A stretch of DNA of 64,000 bases. It comes from Lentisphaerota bacterium. Its GTDB lineage: Bacteria > Verrucomicrobiota > Kiritimatiellia > UBA8416 > JABMPJ01. Where the stretch lies: contig JABMPJ010000047.1 in the NCBI GenBank assembly GCA_013203785.1, positions 2,459 through 66,458 of the forward strand, read 5' to 3'. The notes beneath the pieces are model-generated. The model was not told the origin of the DNA and did not search any database. It saw nothing but the letters and a program-made list of their open reading frames with translations. Of the stretch, positions 18,091-46,628 are shown in pieces. Both the position numbers and the translations under genes were made by a program. How positions within the stretch are numbered: position 1 is the first letter of the stretch; every line of letters starts with the position of its first letter.

Positions 18091-18184
18091 ATTCGGACTC
18101 CCCTATTACAGGACTGGAGATATTCTCCCAATTGTCCCAAAACATGTCTAGCATGCTATTGACCAGTTATTGTACGATATTGTC

Positions 18185-27279: not shown

Positions 27280-27324
27280 GAATTGAGGTACCAATTGACG
27301 ATGGACCCTAAAGGAGTGATTACA

Positions 27325-29031
27325 ATGGCATATTTCCACCCCCACAACCTCGTAGCGGCCGTACTCATTTTGATTCACGCCGTACCGGTATTGCCTGCTG
27401 CCACCGTCCCCCTCGCCCTCGGCGTCGTTCGCCAGAGCAACGGGGTCTATCTGGTGGAAAACCACAGTTCAGCGGGGATTGTGTGGCACCTCGCCGGACA
27501 GCGCGGTGCAACCGTCGTGCACTTGGATGCCCATGATGACTGCCGCTTTGTTTCACAGGAGAAGCTCGACCGCCTGACCACTCTCTGGAAACAAGGGGCG
27601 ACGGATGAGATCTTCCGTCTCAGCGATCTTGGAAATGTCTCGTCATTCAAGGTTCGTCCGGAAGATACGCTATATGACCTGGGGAATTTCATCTATCCCT
27701 GCATCAGCGACGGAACCGTTGCTCGCCTCATATGGGTTCTGCCCGATTTCTCACTGGATGCCAGCGCGCGCGCACGACTACAGAGCCACTTGGCCACGGC
27801 CCTTCATCTCGAGACCCCCCGTTTCACCAATCAGCCCGACGGTTCCTTTTCGTTCCCGCTGCTTGAAGCCACCATGGTCGTCACGACTCTGGACGCCATG
27901 CAGCCCCTGCCCGCAGGAGCCCTGCTTGATATAGACGTCGATTTCTTCGCCTTCGATCGCGCACTGACTGACATCCATCTAAAAGGCGACCTACAGTGGG
28001 ACCCTGAGCTTGTCTGCACGCGGCTGGCAACGCTGGTGCCCTCCCCCGCGATTACCACCATTAGCGCCTCGGTCTACGGGGGTTACCTCCCCCTCCTCTT
28101 TCGCTTTATCGCCGATGCCTGCTTTGATGAGTTTGCCTCTGACTCTTATCCCCCTTACGCCCGTCGGCATCTGGATGCAATCCTCACCATGCGCCGAACG
28201 GCCGCTCCGGTGGCACTACCACCGCCGCCCGAGGATCCCACCTACTGTCCCGCCCACCGCCATTTAGAGGGACTCCTCAACCTGATGCAGCACGAGCCGG
28301 AGAAGGCGTTCGCCCTCATGGAAGCGGCGGCTCGCGAAAAACCAATCTACGCCAAAGCACTTCTAGATGCCGCCGAGGCACTGCGCCACATGGGCCAACC
28401 CGAAACCGCGAGCGCGAGCATCGATCGTTTTGAGGCCCTCCAAGGAGGGGCTACGACCGAATCCCGCGCCGAGCGGGTCCATGTGCTTCGCGCCCTCGGT
28501 CGGCTCAATGAGGCTGAGACCATGGCCAAAGTTTTGGTGGCTTGGAACCCCGATCCGCACCTTTTGCTCCTGCACGGTGGCATCCTTGTGGAACTACAAC
28601 GCTATGACGAAGCTACCGTGATCTACAAACACATCCTGGTTCAACACCCGCAGGACTACTTGGCGGCCTACAATTTGGGATATCTCGAGGAGTTACAAGG
28701 CCATGCCGAGCGCGCCATGGCGCTCTATCGCCAGGCGATAGCCTTGCGCCCGGCCTTCGCGGCAGCCCACGAAAACCTGGGCTACCTGCTCGCGAGAGAG
28801 AGCGCGTTCGAAGAGGCCCGGAGGCACCTCGAGAGCGCGATCGCCCTCGCACCCGAAAAAACGACCGCATGGGTCGGGCTGGGCGATGTATTATCGGTTC
28901 TGGATCAGTACGCCCAAGCCACCGCCTCCTATGAGGAGGTCCTACGGTTGCAGCCCGAAGGCCCCGAGGCCACGCATGCGCGCCAGTCGCTCAGGCGACT
29001 GGCAGCGCTCACGAAACCTGCCGCGCCTTAG
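27325..29031 (+). CDS. TPR-repeat protein with ~330-aa N-terminal domain of unknown function
   Basis: C-terminal half holds multiple TPR units (AYNLGYLEELQGHAERAMALYRQAIALRPAFAAAHENLGYLL...). The N-terminal part contains VVHLDAHDDC. ATG at 27325 preceded by AAAGGAG (the track start at 27283 is a TTG). Confidence 0.55.
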   Translation: MAYFHPHNLVAAVLILIHAVPVLPAATVPLALGVVRQSNGVYLVENHSSAGIVWHLAGQRGATVVHLDAHDDCRFVSQEKLDRLTTLWKQGATDEIFRLSDLGNVSSFKVRPEDTLYDLGNFIYPCISDGTVARLIWVLPDFSLDASARARLQSHLATALHLETPRFTNQPDGSFSFPLLEATMVVTTLDAMQPLPAGALLDIDVDFFAFDRALTDIHLKGDLQWDPELVCTRLATLVPSPAITTISASVYGGYLPLLFRFIADACFDEFASDSYPPYARRHLDAILTMRRTAAPVALPPPPEDPTYCPAHRHLEGLLNLMQHEPEKAFALMEAAAREKPIYAKALLDAAEALRHMGQPETASASIDRFEALQGGATTESRAERVHVLRALGRLNEAETMAKVLVAWNPDPHLLLLHGGILVELQRYDEATVIYKHILVQHPQDYLAAYNLGYLEELQGHAERAMALYRQAIALRPAFAAAHENLGYLLARESAFEEARRHLESAIALAPEKTTAWVGLGDVLSVLDQYAQATASYEEVLRLQPEGPEATHARQSLRRLAALTKPAAP

Positions 29032-30122
29032 CGCAACCAGCCACCCACAACCACTTCGGGCGTTGCATTGCTTCCCTCTGGCGTCCACGCGGGGCTCTGT
29101 GTGAGCGGATTGATCACAGCGTGATTCTCCACATAGATGTTATTGAGGGCCACCAGTGCACCCGTGATGTCGCGGTTGTTTCTGCTGACGATGTCGTTGC
29201 CAGCAAAAATAACACCATAGTAGGTATTGCGGTTGTGCAGCCCTATGTTCATTCCCGCCAACAGACAGGGCCAATTGGTGTTGAACGATGTCTGATAGAA
29301 TCGGTTGTTTATGGTGATACTGCCTGACGCCACCAGCGTCCCTGTCATACCACTGTTATTCGAAATCTCCACGTCGCCGTCCACGTAGACAATTCCGTTG
29401 GCAGGGGTAATGCTAGAGCCGCTGAGGGTTACGCTCGAGGGGTAGTAGATACCCCCCGCGATAGCCGCAGCCTTCCAGGCGTCGAATGGTTGAAAATCAG
29501 GAACCGGGATTCGTGCCGAATTGGGCAATTGGGAGTAGCCACCCGCCACGCCCACCTGCACGATGCCAACAGCTGACACATCGCCATTGACTTGGGTGTT
29601 CCCGGTTGAATGCAGCACATTCCCGTTGGCATGCACACTGCCGTTAATCTGGAGAGCGGCCGTCTCCAGCGTAACGTCGCCTTCAGCCAGAATGGCGTCG
29701 CCAGCACCCAGGGCACGATCACGCAGAAGGCTGATATCGCCGAGCAGTTCCACGACCGTGCTACGTCTCTCGCCCTGGCTCTGCCCCTCGCTCTCGATCA
29801 CCACGGCGGCCGTGGACATGTCGGTGGTCGTCGACACGACATAGGAGCCCTCACCGTAGTCGGACGTAAACGTCATGTCCATCCCGGCGACGTAGTTGGT
29901 GCTCATTCGCTCCAACGCATCAGCGACCCCCGCCTCGGCAATCGCCAGGGCCTGCACGCCATGCGTGATCTTGGTGGATTTGCGAGCCATGCTGCCGCTG
30001 ATCATCGAGATCGCAAATGCGGCCATCAGCATGAGTCCTGCCATGCAGAGAACAATCACCATGGCTGACCCCTCTTCCGTCGTCCATCCCACAATGCGGT
30101 GTCTGTTTTGTTGTGCCTTCAT
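29028..30122 (-). CDS. PilX-like minor pilin / pseudopilin with C-terminal beta-helix-like repeats
   Basis: N-terminal TM helix followed by ...HGVQALAIAEAGVADALERM (PilX_N-like). ATG at 30122 with AAGGGGG upstream. Four-bp convergent overlap with the TPR gene. Confidence 0.55.
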   Translation of the reverse strand: MKAQQNRHRIVGWTTEEGSAMVIVLCMAGLMLMAAFAISMISGSMARKSTKITHGVQALAIAEAGVADALERMSTNYVAGMDMTFTSDYGEGSYVVSTTTDMSTAAVVIESEGQSQGERRSTVVELLGDISLLRDRALGAGDAILAEGDVTLETAALQINGSVHANGNVLHSTGNTQVNGDVSAVGIVQVGVAGGYSQLPNSARIPVPDFQPFDAWKAAAIAGGIYYPSSVTLSGSSITPANGIVYVDGDVEISNNSGMTGTLVASGSITINNRFYQTSFNTNWPCLLAGMNIGLHNRNTYYGVIFAGNDIVSRNNRDITGALVALNNIYVENHAVINPLTQSPAWTPEGSNATPEVVVGGWLR

Positions 30123-30135: not shown

Positions 30136-33048
30136 TTACTTACCTGTATTGAGCGGTCGCACTTCCAGCGTACCCACCGTACTGTGCAGACCGGCCCGTC
30201 CCTGCTTGTAAATCTCCATCTCCATACTGACGCCCTTCACAAATGGCCGTCCATCAACTGTAGCGGTTACGATGCCGCAGTCGGGCCCCTTTCCAAAATC
30301 CACAATGAGATCCACCAGGCCGGTCGGTCCCGGCCAATCGATCGTGACATCCCGTAGAATAGCGGTGGGACTGTTGGTATGCGCCGCTGGCTTAAAGCAG
30401 CGTAGCAGGGCCTCATATTGTACATAACGACGTTTCGGCAGTGAGGAGAGACTGTTGCCGCTATTGCTTTGGAAATAACCGTCATCCCCGAACCGGGCAT
30501 CCTGCCAGTCGGCGTCGGTCAGATCAGACATGTTGGCCAGATCGCTGGAGCGGATGCGAATATCGACATCGCCACCATTCGCGAAATCCTCCACATGGGT
30601 CCAGTTCAATTCGTTGTAGACGGGAGCAGTCATGCGGGTATCAAAAATGCCCGATCTAAAGGTGGCGGTCTCGGGATAGCCCACTTCAAGCCGGGAGAGT
30701 GCGATCATCTCGTTGGAGGCCACCCCATCAATGGTCGAGACCATCCCGGTAGCCACGACGTTCTTCAAGAGGCTGTTCAGGTCCGGATTGATGTTGGCGA
30801 AAACAGGCGTACTCCAAGAACCGACATCTATTCCGTTGTAGTTGGCGTTGGTGATGCCCCACACTGCAGCGGCGGGAGTGCCGGTATTGATAAACAAGGT
30901 TACAGTACCATTGTAGTCGCCAGAGAGAAGATCGAGATCTCCATCAGCATCGATGTCTCCGAATGCGGGAGTGCAGGACAGGCCGACGTTCAACCCCGCA
31001 TAAGGGTTGTTGGTCACCCCGAACGCGGGCGATGCGGCCGAACCGGTATTCTCAAACATCACCATATTACCGGGCTCGTACCGGCCCACAAAGAGGTCAA
31101 GATCACCATCTGCATCAATATCTCCAAAGGCGGGTGCCGTGTAGTGGTTTCCCGCGAACGGGTCGTTCAGGCGCGTTACTCGGATGCCCATCCATGCAGG
31201 ATCAAGCGGTGCCCAACTCGGGGCCGTCGGAGTTCCCAGATTGCGCAAGAATTCGATGTACCCATTCTGACCTCCAATGAAGCAATCGTAGTCACCGTCG
31301 GCATCAATATCAGCAAAGGTAGGGCGACTGAGGGGGTGTCGTATGCCGTTCCAGTCGCTATCCGCAAGAACAAGGTTGGGCGTTATGACGTCACCCTGGT
31401 TCTCATAATACCTGATCTCTCCCACCGCCCAGCCCCCCATGAACAAGTCTTGGTCGCCATCGGCATCAATGTCCACGAATGCAACACCGCAGTAGGTGCC
31501 ATAATCAATCCCCTGCCAACTCGCGTCGGCAGCACCCCAACTTGGAGCCACGGGGGTCCCTGTATTCTCGCGGTAGAGCACTTCGCCACTGCTCCCTCCG
31601 ACGAACAGATCCAGATCCGAGTCCCCGACTCCACCGATCTGGAGACCCACGCGATAATTTTGATCCCGGTTAATCGTGAACTCGGGTACCCAATCGCTCC
31701 ACAGCGTGCCGAGCGACGGAACGAGCGCCGCCGCCTCACCGCCGTTGAACGTGACATTGCTGACCGCACCGCTGACGTCATCGATCAGGACCACGTTGGT
31801 CACGTACGTGGGGGCACCCAGCCCGCCCTGAAATTGGAGGCGCGCCCACTTACCGTTCAGGTTGATCGCGGCGAAAGTATTGCTGCCGCCATAGATGAAG
31901 TTGGTCACCTGCATGGGCTGCCCAGAGAGTAACGCCGAGGTTTCACTATCGGCAACGGAGTTGGCCGTCCAGGCCACGCCCTTATCCATCGTCACGACCA
32001 CATCCGGGATATAGGGGTTTACGTTCGTGAAGGAATAGTCAAATTTGGCGCTACAGTTGCTGCTCATGACCGATCCGGGGTTGTCAAAATTGCTGTCGCA
32101 CCAGAGGTCATTGTAGACGTCGAACTCCAACAAAGCGCCAGCACCCGCTCCGGTGGCCACGGCCGCACAGTTGCCGCTGAAAGTCCAACCCGAGCTGCGC
32201 TGCGCTGCGCTGACGGTCACCCCGGTACCCGCAACGGTGAACATAGGCGAGTTTGGGTGCGAATTGGCCGGCACGTATATCTCCCCTTCGCGGTCACTGG
32301 CCGTGTTACTCAGGCGAATGCGGTCGATCTCGATATTGTACCCCGAGCTGGCACCGCTCTTGGAGATCGCCGTGAAGGAGAGTGTGTGCATGCCGCCATC
32401 CAAAACGATGCTCCCCCAGTTGAACGAGCGCCCCTTGCGACGGTCGGGCGAATAGCAGTCGTAGCGTGCCTCGGGGGGGCTGAAGACCATATCAACGAGG
32501 TTCTCGAAGATCACCTTGCTGCGAGAGGACTCACCCGCCATTCCTGCGGCCGCGATCTCGGTCGTGTCGGCAGCGGCAACCACCGCCTCAAGCTGGTCGT
32601 AGAGATCCTCCGGTGTTGCGTTGGTACTGCGCGGCCAGAATTCGGTGCGCAAAAGCTTGTCGGGCTCGCCAGGACGGACATGGTAGATCACCGTGCGATT
32701 CCACAGGATTCGACCGTCGGGTGAACGATCCAGGAATCCATCACCGTCCGTATCGTCCGAGACGGGCAGGCTGATTGCCGTGAAATCGCTGCCATCGTCG
32801 GGATAGAAAGACATCAGCCCAATTCCGACGCTGGAGAGACGTAGATCGGAGCGGATGCGCTCCAGCGAGAGCTCAAGATCCATATTCAGCTCACCCATAA
32901 TCTCTTCATGGTTCCACACGCGTAGCCCCTGGAGAAAGACGGCGAACACACCGCTCACGACCAAGATCGTGATGGTCGAGGCAATCATGAGCTCTACGAG
33001 GGTGAAGGCGCTCCCTTTTCCGGTCCTGCTCTCAGTTGAACAGTCCAT
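30136..33048 (-). CDS. Giant pseudopilin: prepilin-type N-terminal cleavage/methylation domain fused to FG-GAP (integrin-alpha-like) beta-propeller repeats
   Basis: N-terminus MDCSTESRTGKGSAFTLVELMIASTITILVVSGVFAVF is a type IV pilin-like leader plus hydrophobic helix. At least five FG-GAP/Ca-binding repeats follow (FVDIDADGDQDLF, FADIDADGDYDCF, FGDIDADGDLDLF x2, FANINPD...). The ATG at 33046-33048 overlaps the upstream stop (ATGA). Confidence 0.7.
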   Translation of the reverse strand: MDCSTESRTGKGSAFTLVELMIASTITILVVSGVFAVFLQGLRVWNHEEIMGELNMDLELSLERIRSDLRLSSVGIGLMSFYPDDGSDFTAISLPVSDDTDGDGFLDRSPDGRILWNRTVIYHVRPGEPDKLLRTEFWPRSTNATPEDLYDQLEAVVAAADTTEIAAAGMAGESSRSKVIFENLVDMVFSPPEARYDCYSPDRRKGRSFNWGSIVLDGGMHTLSFTAISKSGASSGYNIEIDRIRLSNTASDREGEIYVPANSHPNSPMFTVAGTGVTVSAAQRSSGWTFSGNCAAVATGAGAGALLEFDVYNDLWCDSNFDNPGSVMSSNCSAKFDYSFTNVNPYIPDVVVTMDKGVAWTANSVADSETSALLSGQPMQVTNFIYGGSNTFAAINLNGKWARLQFQGGLGAPTYVTNVVLIDDVSGAVSNVTFNGGEAAALVPSLGTLWSDWVPEFTINRDQNYRVGLQIGGVGDSDLDLFVGGSSGEVLYRENTGTPVAPSWGAADASWQGIDYGTYCGVAFVDIDADGDQDLFMGGWAVGEIRYYENQGDVITPNLVLADSDWNGIRHPLSRPTFADIDADGDYDCFIGGQNGYIEFLRNLGTPTAPSWAPLDPAWMGIRVTRLNDPFAGNHYTAPAFGDIDADGDLDLFVGRYEPGNMVMFENTGSAASPAFGVTNNPYAGLNVGLSCTPAFGDIDADGDLDLLSGDYNGTVTLFINTGTPAAAVWGITNANYNGIDVGSWSTPVFANINPDLNSLLKNVVATGMVSTIDGVASNEMIALSRLEVGYPETATFRSGIFDTRMTAPVYNELNWTHVEDFANGGDVDIRIRSSDLANMSDLTDADWQDARFGDDGYFQSNSGNSLSSLPKRRYVQYEALLRCFKPAAHTNSPTAILRDVTIDWPGPTGLVDLIVDFGKGPDCGIVTATVDGRPFVKGVSMEMEIYKQGRAGLHSTVGTLEVRPLNTGK

Positions 33049-33464
33049 CACATTCCCTCCGCGATCATGGTGTAAACGTCCACGGATTCACCGCTCAAGC
33101 GACCATTGGGCACAGGGAAGAAGACGCGCACGACGATCCGGGTGCAGGTGGGCACGGCGTTACTGACGGTCGTGGTACGCCGAAAAACTCCTGACTGGTC
33201 AATATTCCCAAACTCGTCGACCGCCGCCTCGTATTCGGACAGCAGCCCGAGGCTCTCGTAATCGAGCGTGCGGGCACGCTGAATGCGATTGCGGGCAATA
33301 CAGGTGGCCTTGTAGAGATCCGAAGCCACAGTGTGGGTCCGCATCGCCGAGATGTTGGCGGCAATGAACCCACCCGCGATCACGAAGAAAATGGCCGAGG
33401 CGATGACCACCTCCACCATCGTGAAACCCGCTTCGTTCCGTTTGCCTTTGCGGCGTCCTAACAT
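33048..33464 (-). CDS. Pseudopilin (prepilin-type N-terminal cleavage/methylation domain protein)
   Basis: MLGRRKGKRNEAGFTMVEVVIASAIFFVIAGGF is the canonical G|FTxxE motif. GGAGG RBS upstream of the ATG at 33464. Confidence 0.75.
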   Translation of the reverse strand: MLGRRKGKRNEAGFTMVEVVIASAIFFVIAGGFIAANISAMRTHTVASDLYKATCIARNRIQRARTLDYESLGLLSEYEAAVDEFGNIDQSGVFRRTTTVSNAVPTCTRIVVRVFFPVPNGRLSGESVDVYTMIAEGM

Positions 33465-33624: not shown

Positions 33625-34551
33625 TCAACCCGTCACAAAGCGCGTGTGATCCCAGTCATGCAGCAGCTGTGCCACATCTGGTCCCCTGGAACGGTGCTCT
33701 CCCCACGAGAGGTCTAGGAGCTTCAATGCCCCCTCGCCGCAGCCCACGACAACCTCCTGATCGATAATACGTAGCGCGCCAATCACGCAATCAGGATGCA
33801 CTCCCGCAACGACAGCCACGCGCCAGAGGGTGAGCCGCCGGCCTTCAAGATAGGTGAAGGCCCCTGGGTAAGGCGATGTCACGGCCCGCACCAGGTTGTA
33901 AAGTTCGCGGGCAGAACGGGACCAATCGATCAACCCGTCATCAGGTGAGCGCCTTCCAAATGTAGTCGCCCCGCTCTCATCCTGCGAACGCCGTGGGGCT
34001 CGGTCCTCTATAATCGCTGGCAGCCATGCCTCGAGCAGAACTTCTGCCGCAGTCTTCAGGCGGGTATAGAGTGAGACAATGTCATCCTGGGAGCTAATCG
34101 GCACGGGGATCTGACCGACAATGTCGCCGGCATCGGCTTGTTCAGACATGTGATGAAGTGTGACACCGGTCTGTGACTCGCCTCGCACCAAGACCCAGTT
34201 GGCGGGACAGCGTCCGCGGTAGGCTGGCAGCAATGAGGCATGCAGATTCAGGCCACCTCGCGGTGCCGTCTGTAGGAGTTCCCGCGATAGGAGTCGCCGA
34301 TAGAAGAATGAAAAGAGAATATCGGGACGGCAGGCGGCGACTCGATCCGGCCAAGGCGCCAGATTGGCATTGTGGGGCCGCTCACAGGGCACCCCCCGCT
34401 CCCGACACCAGTCGACCACCGAGGCGAACCAGCACTCCTCATTCGCGTCGTCCGGGTGCGAGAGGACTAGGGCAATCTCCACCCCGTGGCAGTGCAGTTG
34501 CTCCAAACCGATCACACCGATATCATGATAAGCAAAGACCACCGCCCTCAT
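33625..34551 (-). CDS. Formyltransferase (ArnA N-terminal formyltransferase-domain-like / Fmt family), stand-alone
   Basis: MRAVVFAYHDIGV...ILFSFFYRRLL...GGLNLHASLLPAYRGRCPANWVLVRGESQTGVTLHHM is the formyltransferase catalytic-core pattern. Length 308 aa. The ATG at 34549-34551 overlaps the upstream stop (ATGA). Confidence 0.75.
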   Translation of the reverse strand: MRAVVFAYHDIGVIGLEQLHCHGVEIALVLSHPDDANEECWFASVVDWCRERGVPCERPHNANLAPWPDRVAACRPDILFSFFYRRLLSRELLQTAPRGGLNLHASLLPAYRGRCPANWVLVRGESQTGVTLHHMSEQADAGDIVGQIPVPISSQDDIVSLYTRLKTAAEVLLEAWLPAIIEDRAPRRSQDESGATTFGRRSPDDGLIDWSRSARELYNLVRAVTSPYPGAFTYLEGRRLTLWRVAVVAGVHPDCVIGALRIIDQEVVVGCGEGALKLLDLSWGEHRSRGPDVAQLLHDWDHTRFVTG

Positions 34552-35459
34552 CAGACGTCCTCCTGCACCGATACCGCGCCAGCAAAGCCAGGAAGGCTCT
34601 GTCGGGCCAATCGGCCGCGCGGCATGACCCGGCCGCCGGGCAGGGCGGTCGCGGCTGTTGCCAGCGTCTGGGTGCTCAAACCCGCCTGCTCCAGCGCTGC
34701 AATGATGGCATCCAGCAGCCCCGGTTGCAGCAAGCCTTCGTAGTAGTCGTGAAGACAACAGAGCTGCCCGGAGGACGACCCGCAGACAACGGCAATCGCG
34801 GTCGCCGTCACGCGGTCCGACCGCCCGGTCATGGCTTCGGCGGAGGGCACCGTCACCGGCAGATGGGGCATCTCAAGCAAAGTTCCATCCCGCAGCAGCG
34901 TCTGAAAAGGAGCCCGGCCCCAGCAATCGGCCAAGTAAGGAACCCCGCGCGTCGCCAGCAGCTGTAGCACATCATCCCGGCTGCGCCAGCCGGGCGAGGC
35001 CCATGCATACTGGGTCTCTCCCGTCACGCGCGCCATCACGTCGTAGGCGCGCGCCACCTCCTGGGCCAATCGCTCCGGCTCAGAGTGCCACACCTCATCG
35101 ACCCACCACTCGTGATCGAATCCATGCACGCCCACCTCGTGGCCCAGTGCCAGCAACCGGGCAATGGTCGAACCCAGCAGTACGTCACTGTCCCCGCCCC
35201 CACTCATTCCCAGAAGCTCGCCCCACGCGCCCAGGCGCCCAAGGAGTCGCCACGCACCAATGTGCAACCATCGCTTCAGGTACCCCGGGCGAACGACCTT
35301 GCGCAGCCAGGGGCGCCCGCCGTTGAGTTGTGTCGTGAGGAAGAACGTCGCAAGCATATTGTGCGCCGCCAACCGCTCCGCCATCCGGGGCACCGCCCGG
35401 TGGAGGCCTATCCTGAAGTCCACATCGATGCGAAGTGCCGGTGCGTGACCTTCAGACAT
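34551..35459 (-). CDS. Polysaccharide-deacetylase-family protein (ArnD-like deformylase)
   Basis: NodB-type motifs (LATFFLTT..., HEVGVHGFDHEWW). About 302 aa from the ATG at 35457-35459, which overlaps the upstream stop (ATGA). The track ORF is longer (start at 35831), but its N-terminal extension would overlap the GT2 gene. Confidence 0.65.
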   Translation of the reverse strand: MSEGHAPALRIDVDFRIGLHRAVPRMAERLAAHNMLATFFLTTQLNGGRPWLRKVVRPGYLKRWLHIGAWRLLGRLGAWGELLGMSGGGDSDVLLGSTIARLLALGHEVGVHGFDHEWWVDEVWHSEPERLAQEVARAYDVMARVTGETQYAWASPGWRSRDDVLQLLATRGVPYLADCWGRAPFQTLLRDGTLLEMPHLPVTVPSAEAMTGRSDRVTATAIAVVCGSSSGQLCCLHDYYEGLLQPGLLDAIIAALEQAGLSTQTLATAATALPGGRVMPRGRLARQSLPGFAGAVSVQEDV

Positions 35460-36205
35460 CAAGACCGCCTCGCCCATGGCATACTGTAACGTAGCGTGGC
35501 AGCCAGGATGGTGAACGTCTCCCACCATCGAATCGTTTTGCCCTGCGCATAGCTGCGGAAGCGGTAAGAGACAGGCACCTCCCGCCAGCGCGGCCGAGTC
35601 GAACGCAGCACCTTCCATATCAACTCCGGGGTATAGGCAAAACGGCGCTCGTACAGTGTCAGGCCCCGTACGCACTCCATCCGAAATCCATACAGACCTG
35701 TGAGGAGATCCGCAGTGGTGTGGCGAGCCAAAAGATTGAACCACCCTGATAAAAGGCGATTTACCAGAAAGGTGGCGAGGTACTGGTCGGGGCGCGGTCG
35801 CCCAAAGCCGTAGCGAACGCCCATAACCCAATCGGCCTCACCGGCCAGGAGTGGCGCCAGCACATCCGGAATCTCGGCGGGTCGATACTCGCCATCGGCG
35901 TCGATGACGACCATGTGGCGCGCCTCAATGTTCCCAAACGCCCAGTTCAGCACCGCACCCTTGCCTTCGTTCACAGAGCGGTTCACCACAGAAACAGGGC
36001 CGCACGTCTCGACAGCCTGCTCAAGCTCAGCCGACCAGTCCGTGCTGGCGTCGTTGAGGACCCAGACATGCGAAGAGACATCAAGCCTTGCCAGAACCGC
36101 GACAACCTCCTGCACCACATCCACCAATGTGGCGCGCTCGTTGAAAACTGGAATCACCACCACCACGGCAGGGCACTCAGCGGCGCAGATGGGATTAGCA
36201 GCCAT
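35459..36205 (-). CDS. Family-2 glycosyltransferase (ArnC-like polyprenyl-phosphate aminoarabinose transferase)
   Basis: VVVIPVFNERATL...VLNDASTDWSAE...NEGKGAVLNWAF...VVIDADGEY is the GT-A/GT2 DxD signature. ATG at 36203-36205. Confidence 0.8.
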   Translation of the reverse strand: MAANPICAAECPAVVVVIPVFNERATLVDVVQEVVAVLARLDVSSHVWVLNDASTDWSAELEQAVETCGPVSVVNRSVNEGKGAVLNWAFGNIEARHMVVIDADGEYRPAEIPDVLAPLLAGEADWVMGVRYGFGRPRPDQYLATFLVNRLLSGWFNLLARHTTADLLTGLYGFRMECVRGLTLYERRFAYTPELIWKVLRSTRPRWREVPVSYRFRSYAQGKTIRWWETFTILAATLRYSMPWARRS

Positions 36206-37343
36206 AGTAGCCAATCACCCTCCCCAGGGCAGTCACCACCGACGCCACATCCGCCTCGCTCATCGCGTCGTGCAACGGCAGCGAGAGGATACGCCGAGCG
36301 ACCTGTGTCGCGACGGGACACGACTCCTCGTGCACGCCCAGCCTATCCTGGAGATAGGTCAGACAGTGCAGCGGCCGATAGTGGATCGCGACTTCAACAT
36401 GCTCAGCCGCCATGGCCTCAATCAGCACTCGGCGATCGATACGCAACCGCTCGGGCACGAGCAGTACGTTGAAGAGATGCCAGCCATGGCGCTGGCTCGA
36501 TGGCACAGGTGCAGGCAGTTCGACTGCCTCACTATTCTGTAGCGCCTCGCGGTAACGCTCTGCCAGCACACAGCGCCGGGCGTGGCGCTCCTCGACGGTG
36601 CGAAGTTGGTGGAGGCCCAGGGCCGCCTGTAGATCGCTCATATTGGCCTTGCAGCCCGGTCCCGTGACATCGCGCAACCAGCCCGATCCGGGCACGGCAG
36701 GCACCAGCCCGTGAAAGCGGCGACGGCGGACCCGCTCCGCCAATGCCGCGTCGTTGGTAGCCACCATGCCCCCCTCCCCCGTGGTGACGCTCTTGCAGGG
36801 GTGGAAACTGTAGGCATTGGCGACTCCATAGCCGCCCACATTCCGCCCCTCATAACCCGTCTCAATGGCGTGGGCGCAGTCGCTCAATAGGGGTAGACCA
36901 TGCCGATTAGCGATCCCGATCAGTGGCCCCATCTCACTAGGTCGCCCGGCGAAGTGGACAGGCAGCACGCAGCGCGTACGTGCCGTGATTGCCGCTTCGA
37001 GCAAGGCGGGGTCCAGGGTCCAGTTGCGCGCATCAATGTCGACCAAAACGGGCGTCGCCCCTCGATTAAGGATGGCATGGGCCGTGGCCACGAACGTCAG
37101 CGGGGTCGTGATGACCTCGTCCCCCTCTCCCACACCCAGCCCCGCCAGCGCCAACTCCAGAGCCTGAGTACCAGAGGTCACCGCCACTGCGTGCTCGACG
37201 CCCACATAGCGGGCGAACTGCGTCTCGAAAGCCGCCACCCGCGGTCCGGTCGCCAACCAACCCGAGCGCAAGACCGCCTCGACCTCGTGAATGGCCTCCT
37301 CAGAGATCGCCGACGCAAACACGGTCAGCTTGGTCTCCCGCAC
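36195..37343 (-). CDS. DegT/DnrJ/EryC1-family PLP aminotransferase (ArnB-like UDP-4-keto-pentose aminotransferase)
   Basis: ...ISEEAIHEVEAVLRSGWLATGPRVAAFETQFARYVGVEHAVAVTSGTQALELAL... Likely GTG start at 37341-37343, preceded by GAGGGTGGG. The track ORF starts at a TTG at 37442. Confidence 0.8.
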   Translation of the reverse strand: MRETKLTVFASAISEEAIHEVEAVLRSGWLATGPRVAAFETQFARYVGVEHAVAVTSGTQALELALAGLGVGEGDEVITTPLTFVATAHAILNRGATPVLVDIDARNWTLDPALLEAAITARTRCVLPVHFAGRPSEMGPLIGIANRHGLPLLSDCAHAIETGYEGRNVGGYGVANAYSFHPCKSVTTGEGGMVATNDAALAERVRRRRFHGLVPAVPGSGWLRDVTGPGCKANMSDLQAALGLHQLRTVEERHARRCVLAERYREALQNSEAVELPAPVPSSQRHGWHLFNVLLVPERLRIDRRVLIEAMAAEHVEVAIHYRPLHCLTYLQDRLGVHEESCPVATQVARRILSLPLHDAMSEADVASVVTALGRVIGYYGC

Positions 37344-37387
37344 GGGGGTCCCACCCTCGCGCGCGGGGCGCTCTGATACGACGTTGC

Positions 37388-39667
37388 TCACGGCTCTCCT
37401 CCGGCTTCCACCGTGAGCGGACGGAGTTCCTCTTTGTCCCAACGGTACGCCACATAGCCTGGGTGCGCCGCAAGAAACTCCCCATTGCGCGCGCCGAGGT
37501 CGCGCACGAAGAAGGGTCCGCGACGCAGGAAAGGATCATTCATAAAGAACCCGTCATTGAAAAGCAGCCCCTCCGTTTCAACGAACACGATCGCCCGGTC
37601 CAGCGACTGCTGCCGCACAGCCTCGTGTAGGCCAGCGGTGACATTGCCGTACTGCCGGGCTTCGTGCAACCGTTTAGGGAGATAGGCCGAGAGATTCCAC
37701 ACCACCATGCCGCTCACGACCAAGAGTGTGAGCACCGACCCCACAGAAAGACTCTCTCGCGAGCGGCGACCACAGCCAAGGGTCAGCCGGTCCAACCCCA
37801 CCCCGGACAGCACGGCCGCCAGGGGCACGGCCGCGAACCAGTAGCGTGCGCCATAGCCGATATGCTGGGTTGCCCAGTAACACATATGACCTGCAATCAA
37901 GGCCAGCATGAGCGCCATGAGAAAGAGGTAGCGCCCTCGGTGCCTGGCCAGGAGCAGCGGGACGGGAACCAGCATCAGTGATAGCTGCCAAGGCCAGCCC
38001 AGAAAGTAGTGCGACGTATGCCTGAGATAGAAACGAACGCTGCGCAATGCCTTGGCCGGTGTGTGCCCCCAGGTTCCCCAGGTCTTCAACCAGCCGTATC
38101 CACGGTCGGCTCCGAACCCCAATCGGTCGGATTGATCATAGAGCGAGTAGACATTGAGGGAGGTATGTTCGCCCCCATCGTGTTTGAAGAGCGAGAGCCA
38201 CAACGCCCCCACGATAATGAAGGGCAGTATCCCCGCCAAGCTGGCACTGCCCAGCCTCAACAGCCGTGCTGGCTGACGTTTCCGGAGAAGCACACCTGTA
38301 GCCGTGAGGGCAAATACGCCGCCCAAAAGAAGCGCCGTGAAGGGCCTTGTCAACATGGCCGCCCCTATCGCGGCCCCGCACAGAGCCGCCCGCCCCAGCC
38401 GATCCTCGCGCAGAGCGGAGCGGCCGGCCAGCAAGGCAAGCACGGCAAAGAGCGCCGCGGCCATGTGCGACATCAAGTTGCCGCCCATTAGGAGAAAGAA
38501 GGGCGAACTCACCAGTAGCGCCCACGATGCCCAAGCCGCCCGACGCCCCGCCCAGCCTGCGGCCAGGCGGTACACCGCCAGCGCCAGCAACCCGGCCAGC
38601 AAGGGATTCACCAGCCAGGGTACCCCCGCGCGCATGCCCGTGGCGAGCAGGAGAGGAAAGAGCGGCGGGTACTTGGAGAGCCACCGATTACCGAGCATCA
38701 AGATATGATCATGCTTAAAGAATTCGGGCAGCTCGGGTACGGTTGCCCAGAGATGCCCATGCGCGTAGATGCCAGCCTGGAACCAGTATGCCGTTTCGTC
38801 CGCCAAGTGGGGAACACGCTGCAGCCCGACCACCCCCACCCACGCCGTCGCCACCATCGGCACCCCCACCAACACTCCCCATCGCACGAACCGATGGAGG
38901 CGCAGGCGGCGTAACCTCGGACCAGGGCGGGCGCCAGCCAACTGGACGACCAGCCAGAGCAGAAGCACCAGGCATCCTCCGCGTAGGGCCAAGCGAGCCA
39001 CGTCTCCCACAAGGAGCCGGGCTTCCGTACCCACTGCGAGCGGTTGGAGCGGGACCACGTCTAATACCGCTCCGGGTCGACCATGCTCCAACCGGAAGAA
39101 GAAGGCGTCATTCAGGTCGGGCCGAATCACGAACGCCAGCCCGTTGTCCGCATCCGTCGCGCGCACGACCAGGCCGGCATCTGAAGGATGCGCCAGGTGA
39201 ACGCTGAGTTCGGCATCATGCCCGGCAGGGCGCGGCAGAAGCAGCACCGCCCGGTCGCCCTCGACTCCCGAGTGCCAGGCACCCCGACCGCGGTCGATTT
39301 TCCACTGCGGGGCCGGGTTGAGCCGAGGCCAGTCCCAGTCCGCATCCAAGAGGTGATAGCGGTGTATCGCGCCACCGCTGGCCACACGACCTCTCACCAA
39401 TAGATTGCGGAAGTACTGCCTATGGGCTACCCCGCCATAGGGATGGTAAACGTACAGCCCACAGCAATCGCCGATCAGATCGGGGGGAACGACCAGAGTG
39501 AGCAGGGACTGACCGTCGATCAGTGCCGTGACAGAGTCCCCCTCGTTGCGCAGTACCAGATCGTATCCTTCCGAGCCTTGCCCTGGCCAAAGATGAAGAA
39601 CCAACAGTAGGGCCACAAGGAGGACCTCCACCAGGCAGGCCATCCATAGCGTCCGGCGCTTATGCAT
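37388..39667 (-). CDS. GT-C membrane glycosyltransferase of the ArnT/PMT (GT83/GT39) family with ~300-aa N-terminal extension
   Basis: The core FFKHDHILMLGNRWLSKYPPLFPLLLATG...LMGGNLMSHMAAALFAVLALLAG is followed by many TM helices. The ATG at 39665-39667 is preceded by GGGGGGAG. The first ~300 residues (one TM helix plus a soluble domain) have no counterpart in canonical ArnT. Confidence 0.7.
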   Translation of the reverse strand: MHKRRTLWMACLVEVLLVALLLVLHLWPGQGSEGYDLVLRNEGDSVTALIDGQSLLTLVVPPDLIGDCCGLYVYHPYGGVAHRQYFRNLLVRGRVASGGAIHRYHLLDADWDWPRLNPAPQWKIDRGRGAWHSGVEGDRAVLLLPRPAGHDAELSVHLAHPSDAGLVVRATDADNGLAFVIRPDLNDAFFFRLEHGRPGAVLDVVPLQPLAVGTEARLLVGDVARLALRGGCLVLLLWLVVQLAGARPGPRLRRLRLHRFVRWGVLVGVPMVATAWVGVVGLQRVPHLADETAYWFQAGIYAHGHLWATVPELPEFFKHDHILMLGNRWLSKYPPLFPLLLATGMRAGVPWLVNPLLAGLLALAVYRLAAGWAGRRAAWASWALLVSSPFFLLMGGNLMSHMAAALFAVLALLAGRSALREDRLGRAALCGAAIGAAMLTRPFTALLLGGVFALTATGVLLRKRQPARLLRLGSASLAGILPFIIVGALWLSLFKHDGGEHTSLNVYSLYDQSDRLGFGADRGYGWLKTWGTWGHTPAKALRSVRFYLRHTSHYFLGWPWQLSLMLVPVPLLLARHRGRYLFLMALMLALIAGHMCYWATQHIGYGARYWFAAVPLAAVLSGVGLDRLTLGCGRRSRESLSVGSVLTLLVVSGMVVWNLSAYLPKRLHEARQYGNVTAGLHEAVRQQSLDRAIVFVETEGLLFNDGFFMNDPFLRRGPFFVRDLGARNGEFLAAHPGYVAYRWDKEELRPLTVEAGGEP

Positions 39668-40523
39668 TCTCCCCCCTCTCTCCCACCCGATAGAGCGCCA
39701 CACCCCGCCAAGCACGCCGCTGAAGCGAGGGGAAGAAGCGTATGAGTTGTCGATCGATTGGCCCGAAACAACGCAATGCAGCGCGATAGCCCCACGGCGA
39801 GCCCCATTCGAAGAGAAAGAAGAAGGCCGACGTGGAGAGTAGGTGCCACCCCTCACACTGCTCGAGCTGTAACCCGCCGCCCAGCGTCCCCAACTCTGCG
39901 AAATCAAGATAGTGTGTAAACGGCTCCCATTCGCGGGGACTCGAGCGATGGCGCAACCACTTCATGCATTTTCCCCCGCGCAATGACTCCACAAAGACGG
40001 CGCGGCCACCGGGGCGCAATATACGCGCACATTCGGTCGCAACCCGGCTCGGGGCCGTGTACATCAGCACATCTCGGGAAAATATGCAATCGGCCGAATC
40101 ATCCTCCAACTCCAGCGCGTCGGCTGACATGGTCCGAAAGGCAAGGCGGCCATTGATGGTGCGTTCCGCGCACCACTGAGCGGCCAACGCAACGCGTGCA
40201 GGCGAGACGTCCGTTGCCATGACGTGTGCCCCACGCTGGGCCAGGTGGAGCGCGCCCTGCCCCAGTCCACAGCCCAACACCACGACGCGGCGGCCCTCCA
40301 GCAGCCCCAGTAGCTTGATCGCCCGTGCGGTCTCGGGCGAGAGGAACGTATCGTAGGCCAGCTGCATGCGTCGGCCGTCATCCTGGCCCAGCGAACCGGT
40401 CCGCCGATTGAGTGGATCGCTGCATCCATGCCAGTAACGTGCTGCCGCGAGCGGGCCGCCCGTCGGCCCCGCTTCCGATATCGCAGGTTGACATCCCTGC
40501 CGCCCGTTGGTTTGCTCGTCCAT
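39660..40523 (-). CDS. Class I SAM-dependent methyltransferase
   Basis: Motif I VVVLGCGLGQGALHLAQRGAHVMATDVS and post-I/II motifs. ATG at 40521-40523. Eight-bp overlap with the ArnT-like start. Confidence 0.75.
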   Translation of the reverse strand: MDEQTNGRQGCQPAISEAGPTGGPLAAARYWHGCSDPLNRRTGSLGQDDGRRMQLAYDTFLSPETARAIKLLGLLEGRRVVVLGCGLGQGALHLAQRGAHVMATDVSPARVALAAQWCAERTINGRLAFRTMSADALELEDDSADCIFSRDVLMYTAPSRVATECARILRPGGRAVFVESLRGGKCMKWLRHRSSPREWEPFTHYLDFAELGTLGGGLQLEQCEGWHLLSTSAFFFLFEWGSPWGYRAALRCFGPIDRQLIRFFPSLQRRAWRGVALYRVGERGENA

Positions 40524-40566: not shown

Positions 40567-42537
40567 ATGCCGGGGCCACAAGCGCAATACCGAGCGATTC
40601 ACATCATCGGCACCACCCTCCTGCCCGGCCTGCTGCTGGTGCTACTGGTCCTGGCCGCATTCGGCCCCGCCCTATGGCATGATTTTGCATGGGATGACCA
40701 CGGGCTGATCGTGCAGAACCCGGATATTCGAGTGACCTCCAGTTGGGCTCGCCCATTTCTGCGCAGCTTCTGGCAAACCGGAGCCAACGTGGAGGACGCG
40801 ACACGCAGCTTTTACCGCCCAATCGTAAGTCTTTCTTACCGAATTGATTACGCCATATGGAGCCTGAATCCCATGGGCTTTCATGCCACGAACATCCTCC
40901 TGCATGCGCTAGTTACGCTGCTGGTCTTCGGGCTGGGGCTGCGCCTCCTCGATAATCGGGCAGCAGCGCTTGTGGCCGCGGCCCTCTTCGCGATACACCC
41001 CTCGCACGTTGAAAATATCGTATGGATATCGGGTCGTACCGACATACTATGCAGCCTTTTTGCTTTGGCCGCACTGCTCCTGCTTCTGCCCACCCGGAAG
41101 GGGGTGCCGCCCTCAGTAGGACGCGCAGCGGCGGGCTGCGGCCTCTGTTTTCTCGCCCTGCTGGGCAAAGAGATGGCCCTCTCGCTCCCTATTCTTCTCG
41201 CGGCCTACATCGTCCTCCTGCCCCCCGAACATCGCCGCGCCTATCTGCTCTTGCTGGCCGGACTCTTCGCCACGACGGGCCTCTATATGCTCCTGCGCGT
41301 CTCGGTTCTGGGCCGCATCGTGGGACCAGCCCTGTTCGGGACGCCCGCAGAGAGGATTGCGGCCATTCCAGCCGTGTTCTCCCACTATATAGGAGTACTC
41401 GTTCATTGGATTCCCATTGACCCCCATCACGCGGACACCTTTGAGGCCCTGACGCGGCCACGCGCCATCGGAGCCGGCATCCTGGTTGCGGGTGGCTACG
41501 CGGCCCTCCTCACGCTCCTTTGGCGACGCCAGCAGAAGCGTGTTGTCTTCCTCCTGGCGTGGCCGCTCATCACACTGCTTCCCGTCATGAAGTTGGGTAC
41601 CTTCGGCGATGTGCTCTACGCGGATCGTTTTCTCTACCTCCCTTCGGTCGGCTTCCTGATGGGGGCGGTGCTGCTGTGGAACAAAACCGCGGTGAAACAG
41701 ATGCAGCACCGCACGGGCCGAAATCTGGGTGCCGTGCTGCTGCTGGCCTACGGAGGTGCCTCCATGGCCCTCTGCTCCATCCATACTCCCTACTGGAAAG
41801 ACGACGAAAGCCTCTTTGGTCACGCCGCGCTCACATCTCCATCCTCAGCCTATATCCAGTACAACTTGGGAAATAGTCTGAGCGAGGCAGGAAAAGACGC
41901 TACAGCCGTCCACGCCTACATGCGGGCGGTAGAGATTGAACCTCACTATGGGGCGGCATTTGCCAATATGGGGATCGCCCTCATGCATGGCGGGCGGGAC
42001 AAAGATGCCATAGCCTGTCTCCGCAAAGCCCTTTCACTGGGCGATAACAGCGTCGTCACCTATACGAGTCTCGGCACCGCCTACCGCGCCCTTGGAGACT
42101 TGGAGTCAGCAAGACAGGCCTATGAGGCCTCGCTCGACATCTCCGAAACCGCCGCCGCCCGCAGCAATCTAGGCGAGTGCTTGCTCGCTCAGCATCACCC
42201 CGCGCAGGCCGAAGCCCACTTCCGGCGAGCCTACCGGATCGAGCCTTCACCCCGCATCCTCTGTAACCTTGGCTCGGCCTTGCTTGAACAGGATCGTGCC
42301 ACGGAAGCCATGCCCTATCTTCGTGAAGCTGAGCGCACGCTCTCACGCACACATGGGGGCGATGCCTTCGCCGTGGCCTATAATCTGGCGTGGGCGCTCA
42401 AGGACTCCAAGGGTACCGACGCAGCGAAGCCCTATGCCGAACGAGCGAGAGCACTCCTCAGGCAGGGCCATGGACCGCCAGCGGCGGACGGTCAAACTCC
42501 TGATATTTTGGAGAGTATCCTTGGTGCGATGGACTGA
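40567..42537 (+). CDS. Multi-pass membrane protein with C-terminal TPR repeats (TMTC/PMT-like putative glycosyltransferase, DUF1736-like)
   Basis: N-terminal ~400 aa hold about 10 TM helices with the AWDDHGLIVQNPDIR...RSFYRPIVSLSYRIDYAIW block. C-terminal ~250 aa hold several TPR units. ATG at 40567. Confidence 0.6.
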   Translation: MPGPQAQYRAIHIIGTTLLPGLLLVLLVLAAFGPALWHDFAWDDHGLIVQNPDIRVTSSWARPFLRSFWQTGANVEDATRSFYRPIVSLSYRIDYAIWSLNPMGFHATNILLHALVTLLVFGLGLRLLDNRAAALVAAALFAIHPSHVENIVWISGRTDILCSLFALAALLLLLPTRKGVPPSVGRAAAGCGLCFLALLGKEMALSLPILLAAYIVLLPPEHRRAYLLLLAGLFATTGLYMLLRVSVLGRIVGPALFGTPAERIAAIPAVFSHYIGVLVHWIPIDPHHADTFEALTRPRAIGAGILVAGGYAALLTLLWRRQQKRVVFLLAWPLITLLPVMKLGTFGDVLYADRFLYLPSVGFLMGAVLLWNKTAVKQMQHRTGRNLGAVLLLAYGGASMALCSIHTPYWKDDESLFGHAALTSPSSAYIQYNLGNSLSEAGKDATAVHAYMRAVEIEPHYGAAFANMGIALMHGGRDKDAIACLRKALSLGDNSVVTYTSLGTAYRALGDLESARQAYEASLDISETAAARSNLGECLLAQHHPAQAEAHFRRAYRIEPSPRILCNLGSALLEQDRATEAMPYLREAERTLSRTHGGDAFAVAYNLAWALKDSKGTDAAKPYAERARALLRQGHGPPAADGQTPDILESILGAMD

Positions 42538-42595
42538 CTTTGCTATTGTCTCGCATGGAACTTGCTCTTACTATTGCCCGCAGTATAAAGCACCT

Positions 42596-43630: not shown

Positions 43631-44235
43631 ATCTTCGCGCCGACCTGATATTTGCCACGGAGCAACGCAGCGCCAGCCGGGTGAGCTTGCGATCCATCAC
43701 ACGTGTGGCCTCCATTGTCGGCCCCGTGGCGGGCCTGGGTCTCATTGCCTTCATCGCAATGAACGCCATCAACTTGAGCAACCGCGCCAAGGGCATTAAG
43801 CGGGACTGGCTGGATCTCGAGCCCCGCAAAGAACAGGCCCTCAAGGTGCTCGAGGCAGGCCGGGTCAATGACAGCATTCTCAAAGAGATCGAGACGTGGA
43901 AACACTCCAGCATCGACTGGGCCCCACAGCTGTTCGCTATTCAGAAAGGCATCAGCCCGAGCATCCAACTCAGCTCCATCCGGATCAGTCAGGTCTTAAA
44001 CCAGAACGATCGGGGCATCACAGCCCGTTCTTTTGGGCTCTCTCTATCCGGAACGGCAGTCGGCCGAGATGCCGAGGTCGCTGTAGAATCACTGCAGAAG
44101 CTGTTTCTTGAAGGCCCTGAATTCAAGACGCTGATCGCCAGTGCACAGATCCCGCGCTTCGGGGCCGACCCATCTGACAAAAATAATCGAATTTTTGAGC
44201 TGAATTGTGGATATAGCGCGAGCCTTTTCCAGTGA
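43627..44235 (+). CDS. pilN: PilN-like pilus assembly protein (single TM + coiled coil)
   Basis: ATGA overlap with pilM. One TM helix (ASIVGPVAGLGLIAFIAMNAI), then a periplasmic coiled-coil domain. Position is between pilM and pilO. Confidence 0.55.
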   Translation: MNLRADLIFATEQRSASRVSLRSITRVASIVGPVAGLGLIAFIAMNAINLSNRAKGIKRDWLDLEPRKEQALKVLEAGRVNDSILKEIETWKHSSIDWAPQLFAIQKGISPSIQLSSIRISQVLNQNDRGITARSFGLSLSGTAVGRDAEVAVESLQKLFLEGPEFKTLIASAQIPRFGADPSDKNNRIFELNCGYSASLFQ

Positions 44236-45373: not shown

Positions 45374-45417
45374 CGTTGTCACGCCGCGTGGCAACGTTCG
45401 ACAGGAGGTATGATATC

Positions 45418-46566: not shown

Positions 46567-46584
46567 ATTGATAACCGAGAGAGA

Positions 46585-46604: not shown

Positions 46605-46628
46605 CAGCCAGAAAAAGGGGAATAGCCC

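Follow-up and report, generated by a model that had tools for sequence, protein, structure and literature searches.

Background

Modular pilins carry adhesive modules that are predicted to be exposed at the filament tip (Raynaud et al. 2021, PMC8179133). The InterPro survey of that study returned 264 modular-pilin architectures; its Dataset S1 includes the combination IPR012902-IPR013517 (prepilin motif plus FG-GAP) in 5 proteins plus variants, and its Dataset S2 has some PilY1 proteins in which FG-GAP repeats precede the PilY1 domain. Oversized minor pilins, such as Thermus ComZ (beta-solenoid), CofB of enterotoxigenic Escherichia coli and Vibrio TcpB, initiate assembly, are located at the tip and carry an extra beta-rich domain (PMC8179133). 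Here we describe a giant modular minor pilin of 971 aa, encoded on the reverse strand of a 64,000-nucleotide stretch (hereafter the window) of a Lentisphaerota bacterium (assembly GCA_013203785.1, contig JABMPJ010000047.1, positions 2,459 to 66,458), in which a module of five FG-GAP repeats is inserted in a large pseudopilin whose gene lies between two pseudopilin-type genes. With a probability of about 0.6, this triad encodes a minor-pilin priming and tip complex, the middle subunit of which shows a Ca-dependent and probably glycan-binding head.

Like the modular minor pilins of Streptococcus sanguinis, PilB (von Willebrand factor A module, vWA) and PilC (lectin), the giant pilin uses a class III signal peptide and a pilin helix to carry a bulky, presumptive ligand-binding module. 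Unlike in these pilins, the module sits in a hairpin in the middle of the base and is not grafted through a linker at the C-terminus, the base also exists without it, and the host is a diderm bacterium of the Planctomycetes-Verrucomicrobia-Chlamydiae (PVC) group. The repeat consensus, with Ca loops between strands 1 and 2, is shared with Psathyrella velutina lectin, CRTAC1 and the head of integrin alpha, but those proteins are seven-bladed whereas here five repeats occupy 285 residues. No sequence or fold match was found between the giant pilin family and ComZ, CofB or TcpB, which act as DNA receptor or trimeric initiators; their extra domains are unrelated and their hosts belong to other phyla.

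As in the PilY1/PilC tip adhesins, a Ca-binding beta-propeller would, in our proposal, be presented together with minor pilins at the filament tip. PilY1 itself is not a pilin, and its propeller is of the IPR008707/PF05567 type with seven blades. By contrast, the giant protein is pilin-type and has five FG-GAP repeats, and Pfam gave no match to the PilY1 domain (PF05567/IPR008707) at E<=0.1 in it or its two neighbours; this corrects the likeness to PilY1 drawn in the original prediction, which was made from the letters of the DNA alone. The union of pilin and FG-GAP is also less new than that prediction implied, since the architecture is already catalogued among modular pilins (Dataset S1, PMC8179133). 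Literature searches found no paper naming both terms, nothing specific on pili of Kiritimatiellia and no description of a five-bladed FG-GAP propeller. Three features go beyond the known: the topology of the insertion, the FG-GAP ring of apparently five blades and a conserved, uncharacterised base family of ~690 aa restricted to Kiritimatiellia/Lentisphaerae.

The giant pilin gene and its class III signal peptide

The gene and the N-terminal features of its product are as follows.

30136..33051 (stop included), reverse strand: giant modular minor pilin, 971 aa (from GTG) or 970 aa (from ATG 33048)
33007..33051, reverse strand: leader peptide, class III signal (aa 1-15), with Ala at -1 where the consensus of the family alignment is Gly
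32815..33006, reverse strand: mature N-terminus FTLVE (Phe+1, Glu+5) and long alpha1 helix, aa 16-79, from the model and the family alignment

Counted from the GTG start, the open reading frame (ORF) encodes 971 aa, and an ATG at 33048, one codon 3' of the GTG, gives the 970-aa protein annotated by NCBI (NQU39024.1, a 'VCBS repeat-containing protein' of a Lentisphaerae metagenome-assembled genome, MAG). The stop codon of the small pilin gene upstream shares nucleotides with this ATG (TGATG). The coordinates first proposed for the gene, 30136-33048, are exact for the ATG start, and both the ORF call and the deposited entry show that the ORF is real. Residues are numbered here from the GTG; NCBI numbers are lower by 1. 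The AlphaFold model of the full-length protein has a mean predicted local distance difference test score (pLDDT) of 90.5 and a predicted TM-score (pTM) of 0.72. A second 971-aa ORF of the window (13705..16620) was considered as a paralog and rejected (BLASTP E=2.2); it is GH106-like and unrelated to the giant pilin.

The N-terminus reads MMDCSTESRTGKGSA|FTLVELMIASTITILVVSGVFAVFL, with the bar at the predicted cleavage site. The leader is short (15 aa) and polar and ends in ...RTGKGSA|FTLVE, and F16-T-L-V-E20 is followed by LMIASTITILVVSGVFAVFL, giving the Phe+1 and Glu+5 of pilins. In the 72-member family alignment, position -1 is Gly in 66 of 69 sequences and Ala in 3, the window protein among them; +1 is Phe (64 of 69) or Tyr (5), +2 is Thr (68/69), and +5 is Glu without exception (70/70). 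A short polar or basic leader ahead of -1 and a hydrophobic stretch after +5 are features of the family N-termini, and Pfam N_methyl picks up 53 of 57 members at E<=0.05 (best 5.5e-8). Cleavage after Gly13 (G|SAFTLVE) was rejected: it would set Glu at +7, and the alignment puts Ala15 in the Gly-1 column. Judged from the alignment, the class III signal peptide is under selection across the family, and the giant pilin would be cleaved by a prepilin peptidase. The type IV pilin-like N-terminus that had been proposed is borne out by the alignment, though with Ala at -1 in this protein.

In the model, the alpha1 helix spans residues 18-79 (62 residues) and is followed by strands at 81-83, 92-97, 119-126 and 132-139. 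Pfam and NCBIfam gave no T2SSJ or PilW match for the giant pilin (only HpsC at 0.067), and the NCBIfam search added nothing significant. The N-terminal head domain also contains a DxDxDG-like loop (SDDTDGDGFLDR, residues 99-110, window 32722..32757, reverse strand), residues of which are kept in long and short family members alike (Gly105 in 68/72, Leu107 in 65/72 and Arg109 in 66/72). This loop may be an extra Ca site in the pilin head, as in some pseudopilins.

The FG-GAP module is inserted in a hairpin

The module and its repeats (aa positions; HMM, hidden Markov model; iE, independent E-value) are as follows.

30781..31635, reverse strand: inserted FG-GAP module, aa 473-757, ~285 aa, with five repeats and four intact Ca loops, predicted to be circularly closed
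aa 476-519: repeat 1, begins only at HMM position 12
aa 520-572: repeat 2, complete
aa 575-628: repeat 3, complete
aa 637-690: repeat 4, complete
aa 693-745: repeat 5, complete
aa 746-757: 12-residue fragment, HMM positions 2-13, weak (iE 0.087); supplies the first strand missing from repeat 1

Pfam FG-GAP_3 matches the giant pilin well above its cutoff (E=7.8e-13, 49.3 bits against 26.9), and Pfam FG-GAP falls just under its own. A repeat HMM built from repeats 2-5 of the orthologs recovers exactly five repeats with iE values of 1e-17 to 2e-26, far beyond chance, which settles the earlier count of at least five FG-GAP/Ca-binding repeats. The consensus repeat unit is GYSAPAFADIDGDGDLDLFVGGQDGTITFYENTGTPTNPAWAAVVSNWAGIDVG, with Ca loops between strands 1 and 2 (...PAFADIDGDGDLDLFVGG...FYENTGT...). 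The four DxDxDGDxD loops of repeats 2-5 are intact and kept in 30 orthologs; that of repeat 1 is degenerate. The intact loops are predicted to bind Ca. The module starts and stops at the same repeat phase, as expected of a 'velcro'-closed ring with adjacent termini, which is a prerequisite for insertion in a hairpin. The AlphaFold model has pLDDT >90 over residues 473-757 and shows a compact beta module with ~20 strands by DSSP, fitting five four-stranded blades, so that a five-bladed ring is the likely arrangement on this model.

In the relatives of ~690 aa, residues 1-~476 and ~759-971 have counterparts and exactly the stretch between them is missing; we therefore regard the propeller as a ~285-aa module inserted in a large pseudopilin. 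DSSP of the two models, full-length and propeller-less, puts the insertion between strands 466-472 and 758-765, in the loop of the hairpin that they make (465-471 and 479-485 in the propeller-less homolog P0030). The propeller is therefore covalently part of the pilin, as proposed, but is not joined to it by an N-to-C fusion.

A Foldseek search with the whole 971-aa model gave as its best PDB matches PVL and PAL (the P. velutina and P. asperospora lectins; E 2e-6 to 1e-5, probability 1.0), which are propeller lectins of the FG-GAP type that bind N-acetylglucosamine (GlcNAc). They were followed by murine CRTAC1 (1.3e-5), the Agrocybe aegerita GlcNAc lectin (AAL-2) and integrin alphaV. Of the integrin-alpha-like propeller in the original prediction, the FG-GAP repeats modelled as a beta module and the place of integrin alphaV among the closest structures hold; the seven blades of integrin alpha do not, since the giant pilin has five repeats only.

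Some of these structural matches are enzymes, and the insert might then be a catalytic module, for example a polysaccharide lyase-like propeller that turns the pilin into a filament-displayed enzyme. A rhamnogalacturonan lyase of polysaccharide lyase family 11 (PL11), with an FG-GAP-type propeller, is among the weak matches (4cag, E=1.5e-2, probability 0.63), as are five-bladed enzymes of glycoside hydrolase family 32 (GH32; 8bet, 6j0t); rhamnosidase-like GH106 genes lie in the neighbourhood, and peptidase-bearing modular pilins have been predicted (PMC8179133). However, the enzyme matches are far weaker than those to the lectins, integrin and CRTAC1, and neither Pfam nor NCBIfam gave a catalytic-family match for the giant pilin. 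The PL11 propeller, moreover, has eight blades against the five repeats here. We consider a catalytic module highly improbable, and a ligand-binding head remains the preferred reading of the insert.

Base domains, distribution and evolution of the family

Two parts of the base outside the insert could be delimited.

32311..32439, reverse strand: beta-sandwich motif of the base, aa 205-247, CBM84-like (family profile against PDB 7EHG)
30139..30780, reverse strand: C-terminal beta-rich base domains, aa 758-971, corresponding in alignment to the last ~200 aa of the short relatives

The family profile matches only the last 40 residues of the ~140-aa MiXBM (PDB 7EHG, E=6.5e-7), a xanthan-binding carbohydrate-binding module (CBM) of family CBM84 from a Microbacterium xanthan lyase. 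Residues 758-971 are predicted to be all-beta, with pLDDT mostly >90, and have no Pfam match and no known family. The model of P0030 (pLDDT 87.3) gave no convincing whole-fold match in the fold search; its only high-probability match was the beta-sandwich of the mannose-binding PNGase PAW domain (probability 0.98, 139 columns). On these models the base appears as a string of beta-sandwich domains without a described relative.

Among 5.8 billion proteins searched there were ~30 full-length orthologs (940-1015 aa, 40-77% identity to the giant pilin) and ~40 relatives of ~690 aa, which lack the repeats and cover ~47% of it. The named sources are Kiritimatiellae, Lentisphaerae or Verrucomicrobia, and the product names include 'prepilin-type N-terminal cleavage/methylation domain-containing protein', 'PulG' and 'PilW family protein'. 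A locus scan with one genome per GTDB species gave 47 loci, all in PVC-group genomes, including Victivallis vadensis, a cultured Pontiellaceae isolate and one Omnitrophota MAG. By these searches the family is confined to the PVC group, namely Kiritimatiellia, Lentisphaerae/Victivallales and one Omnitrophota.

A neighbour-joining tree built on 628 base-only columns places the propeller-bearing proteins in one clade, inside which a single propeller-less subclade (P0030-37) is nested with no repeat remnant. One gain and one clean loss of the insert is the simplest reading of this tree, which is weak, as neighbour-joining trees are. Among the long forms, mean pairwise identity is 39% in the insert and 40% in the adjacent 261-472 region, and reaches 50-55% in the helix, pilin head and C-terminal domains, which are thus slower-evolving than the insert. 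One MAG (JAQBYD01, 'Verrucomicrobia bacterium casp150-mb.303') has two propeller-bearing paralogs (L006 and L009; 47% and 40% identical to the query). One of them adjoins pilM-N-O; the other adjoins the tetratricopeptide repeat (TPR) gene treated further on and has the homolog of the 364-aa protein described below upstream, not downstream.

A conserved three-gene unit

The giant pilin gene is flanked on the same strand by the following two genes.

33048..33464, reverse strand: first triad gene, small GspI-like minor pseudopilin, 138 aa, N_methyl 27 bits against 21.2
29028..30122, reverse strand: third triad gene, GspK/PilX-type pseudopilin-like protein, 364 aa, probable beta-solenoid body, N-terminus without Glu+5

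The small pilin has the N-terminus KRNEAG|FTMVEVVIASAIFF (KRNEAG|FTMVEVVIAS), with a weak GspI match (TIGR01707, E=3e-4) and weak ComGE and PilV matches as well, and NCBI labels it a prepilin-type N-terminal cleavage/methylation domain protein. The 364-aa protein, whose gene begins 13 nt past the stop of the giant pilin gene, has no Pfam match of its own. Its family (~60 members) shows a leader followed by G-[SA]-A-[LMF]-x-[IV]-V-[LM] without Glu+5, which is the same pattern as in E. coli GspK (MNNEQRG|VALLIVLMLL). Weak Pfam matches in this family are to DUF2572 (17/33), DUF4900 (16/33) and PilX_N (2/33), and, of beta-solenoid type, to Ice_binding (6/33), FapA and Bactofilin. Searches of PDB sequences with the two flanking proteins gave nothing useful. 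The small pseudopilin and the PilX-like protein that had been proposed as neighbours are confirmed by the N_methyl score and by the GspK/PilX-type N-terminus, respectively. A motif scan for pilin genes in the window found only two, both in the triad, and a promoter and terminator scan around the triad found sites no more frequent than by chance.

Triad synteny was assessed by tblastn of the window proteins against the 47 loci together with gene tables. In almost every locus with enough flank, the small pilin gene is directly upstream and the homolog of the 364-aa protein directly downstream, and the order holds for long and short forms of the giant pilin alike. This is the I-J-K order of type II secretion system (T2SS) and type IV pilus minor-pilin operons, with the giant pilin in the J position. 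As in GspI-GspJ-GspK of T2SS and PilV-PilW-PilX of type IVa pili, the same three-gene order comes with Glu+5 in the first two products and a third of the G|(S/V)AL(L/V)IVL type without Glu+5, and the triad is linked to a secretin operon. Unlike E. coli GspJ (195 aa), the giant pilin is ~5x larger and has only the N-terminal helix in common with it, and unlike GspK the third protein has weak beta-solenoid-type matches instead of an alpha-domain. The window contains no GspH/FimU-like gene.

Some short-form loci (L030/L035, 6378..7450; L017/L027, ~15700..16500) hold an extra pair of small prepilin genes (~130 and ~190 aa), which suggests, from sequence, a fuller minor-pilin set in those genomes. 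In L003/L030 a 557-aa DUF4900 protein is also encoded near the triad.

Candidate assembly machinery

A candidate assembly operon lies ~9 kb from the triad.

42269..48581, forward strand: pilM - pilN/O-like - unknown - secretin operon (Pfam, NCBIfam)

Pfam identifies PilM_2 (2e-10) and Secretin (4.6e-33) in this operon, and NCBIfam identifies pilM (TIGR01175, 2e-17), a GspM-like match for the PilO-like protein (1.6e-6), PilQ (1.3e-52) and GspD (4.2e-51), the secretin scoring about equally as the last two. From its gene content, this operon is probably the assembly and outer-membrane machinery of the filament. In a 46%-identical ortholog locus (L002/L008) and in L011, the operon lies right beside the triad and is transcribed away from it; it adjoins the triad also in L009, and in L034 it comes after the triad on the same strand.

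The triad could also form the tip of a T2SS pseudopilus. It would then be the equivalent of GspI/J/K, capping a short pseudopilus in the periplasm by which secreted glycoside hydrolases are selected or pushed through the secretin, with the propeller and the CBM-like domains binding cargo or gating the secretin and no extracellular adhesion. An I-J-K-like order with a K-like protein lacking Glu+5 is a hallmark of T2SS minor pseudopilins, the secretin and the PilO-like protein match GspD and GspM as given above, and some relatives were named 'type II secretory pathway pseudopilin PulG' by the Joint Genome Institute; the window is also rich in carbohydrate-active enzymes of secreted type (GH106-like, DUF4838/GH2_N). 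Against this stands the separate PilM (PilM_2, TIGR01175), which is typical of type IVa pilus machines, T2SS using GspL. GspC, GspL, GspE and GspF are absent near the triad. By analogy, a bulky lectin-like head would also be easier to explain on an exposed filament. We hold a T2SS pseudopilus to be unlikely, and retain a type IV filament as the assembly in which the triad would work.

Proposed role of the triad and points for and against it

Four things can be read from sequence or model: a signal-peptide motif conserved throughout the family, the build of the repeats, the topology of the insertion and the synteny. From them the following mechanism may be drawn. The triad (33464->29028, reverse strand) is co-directional and translationally coupled, and would supply a small GspI-like pilin, a giant 'J-position' pilin and a GspK/PilX-like cap without Glu+5. 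The class III signal peptide would insert the giant pilin into the inner membrane, where a prepilin peptidase encoded elsewhere would cut before Phe16. The mature protein would dock with its two partners through the 62-residue alpha1 helix and prime polymerisation of the major pilin; with such a priming role it would come to lie at the far end of the filament, for whose assembly the nearby PilM/N/O-secretin machinery would serve. The globular part would form a beta-sandwich stalk with one CBM-like domain, and from the stalk hairpin would project the five-repeat FG-GAP head, stabilised by four Ca2+ loops and binding a ligand. Incorporation at the tip and adhesion are what the gene set and architecture would predict.

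A glycan or polysaccharide surface is the most likely ligand, on circumstantial evidence: the lectin-like structural neighbours, the CBM84-like motif and the carbohydrate-active genes of the window (GH106-like, DUF4838/GH2_N, F5/8 type C). In this polysaccharide-eating bacterium of Lentisphaerae/Kiritimatiellia type, the giant pilin is most likely an adhesive end piece of a type IV filament.

Several observations weigh against this proposal. At the N-terminus, Pfam N_methyl scores 15.5 bits on the giant pilin, under the cutoff of 21.2, and position -1 is Ala and not the canonical Gly; in mutagenesis of the P. aeruginosa pilin of the Strom and Lory type, Ala at -1 was reportedly tolerated but cleaved less efficiently than Gly. 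In the head, alignment of the family profile with E. coli GspJ (hhalign) covers 31 columns of the alpha1 helix only (probability 69%), and the top 50 Foldseek matches of the full-length or propeller-less model include no pilin or pseudopilin structure. For these two reasons a pilin-type globular head is not demonstrated; what speaks for it is the helix followed by the four-strand pattern, with no fold match. The top propeller matches of the whole model, at probabilities of 0.96-1.0, superpose poorly (TMt ~0.3, root-mean-square deviation 9-30 A, and 9-16 A on the seven-bladed propellers), as would be expected if five blades are laid on seven, so that the match to solved propellers is qualitative. 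A globular body of ~900 residues would have to cross the secretin. In most loci the triad has no neighbouring pilMNO or secretin, and the 64-kb window contains no gene for a prepilin peptidase (PilD/GspO), PilB/GspE, PilC/GspF or a major pilin. Finally, tip location and adhesion are deduced rather than taken from an experiment or a model of the complex.

Some of the same observations, namely Ala at -1, the sub-threshold N_methyl score, the head without a pilin-fold match, the very large body of nearly 900 residues and the machinery that is not adjacent in most loci, would suit a protein outside any filament, its prepilin-like N-terminus being merely the anchor or export signal of a periplasmic or surface binding protein. 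Such an account would fit many PVC proteins that bear a prepilin motif and have no assigned function. It does not sit well with Glu+5, which in pilins serves subunit-subunit contacts within the filament and is invariant here, nor with the strict co-occurrence and translational coupling with two pseudopilin-type genes, nor with the repeated position of the triad beside pilMNO-secretin operons. We judge this account improbable. Overall, both a T2SS pseudopilus and a non-filament protein become less likely given that PilM is present, that Glu+5 is invariant and that the triad is syntenic, and the preferred reading is still a minor-pilin tip complex with a ligand-binding middle subunit.

The ortholog and genomic-context search called for at the outset returned ~30 full-length orthologs and 47 loci. 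The idea of a tip-adhesin complex gains from the triad order in nearly all of the 47 loci and from at least four lineages in which the triad abuts pilM-N-O...secretin; the tip location, adhesion and processing that go with it are deductions.

Other genes in the window

Between the triad and the pilM-secretin operon lies an Arn-like sugar-modification operon (33625..39907, reverse strand), encoding a formyltransferase (Formyl_trans_N/C), a polysaccharide deacetylase, a family 2 glycosyltransferase (GT2), a DegT-type aminotransferase and an 839-aa multi-pass membrane protein; within the window the Pfam evidence covers the formyltransferase only, and the other products are assigned via the orthologous genes of L001. 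In the window and in this closest relative, L001, the Arn-like operon and a TPR gene separate the triad from the pilM operon. Because the triad and the pilM operon are adjacent in the more distant relatives L002 and L011, the Arn-like block gives the impression of having been inserted into a gene order older than itself.

A 582-aa TPR protein with a weak N-terminal UPF0489 match (27283..29031, forward strand) is encoded convergently to the third triad gene, with a 4-nt overlap. A homolog of it is found downstream of the triad in eight loci, all of the long form (L001, L002, L004, L005, L006, L008, L011 and L014); beside short-form triads there is none beyond a 25% TPR-level match. From sequence, this association could be a functional link or merely clade synteny.

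The carbohydrate-active cluster occupies 5252..12590 (reverse), 2016..5159 (forward), 13705..16620 (reverse) and 16918..18090 (reverse), and contains three tandem paralogs with DUF4838 and a GH2-type sugar-binding domain (GH2_N), two GH106 (alpha-L-rhamnosidase)-like genes and one F5/8 type C protein, with an AraC-type regulator beside it (18170..19069). Directly after the secretin gene is a histidine kinase-like gene (48589..50268, forward strand), which has the same place in L002/L008 and L011 and may regulate the filament system.

Conclusions

A further-reaching interpretation, which we offer as tentative and somewhat doubtful, is that Kiritimatiellia and Lentisphaerae possess a distinct, lineage-specific type of tip, in which a ~690-aa 'super-pilin' with a new multi-domain fold replaces PilW and PilY1. 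In one clade, this protein would have acquired a closed five-bladed FG-GAP propeller as a Ca-dependent lectin head, so that a retractable or extendable filament would tether polysaccharide specialists to the glycans they degrade.

The finding extends current concepts and changes none, the modular minor pilin being a known kind of architecture. The versatility of type IV filaments derives partly from minor-pilin modules, of which only a handful have been studied (vWA, lectin, beta-solenoid), and the family offers a natural experiment, the same three-gene tip set occurring with and without a Ca-binding FG-GAP head. A five-bladed FG-GAP propeller, if true, would be of structural interest. The family occurs in PVC bacteria that are uncultured or have lately been brought into culture and that play an important part in the breakdown of complex and sulfated polysaccharides; if the head binds glycans, filament biology would be tied to substrate capture in these bacteria.

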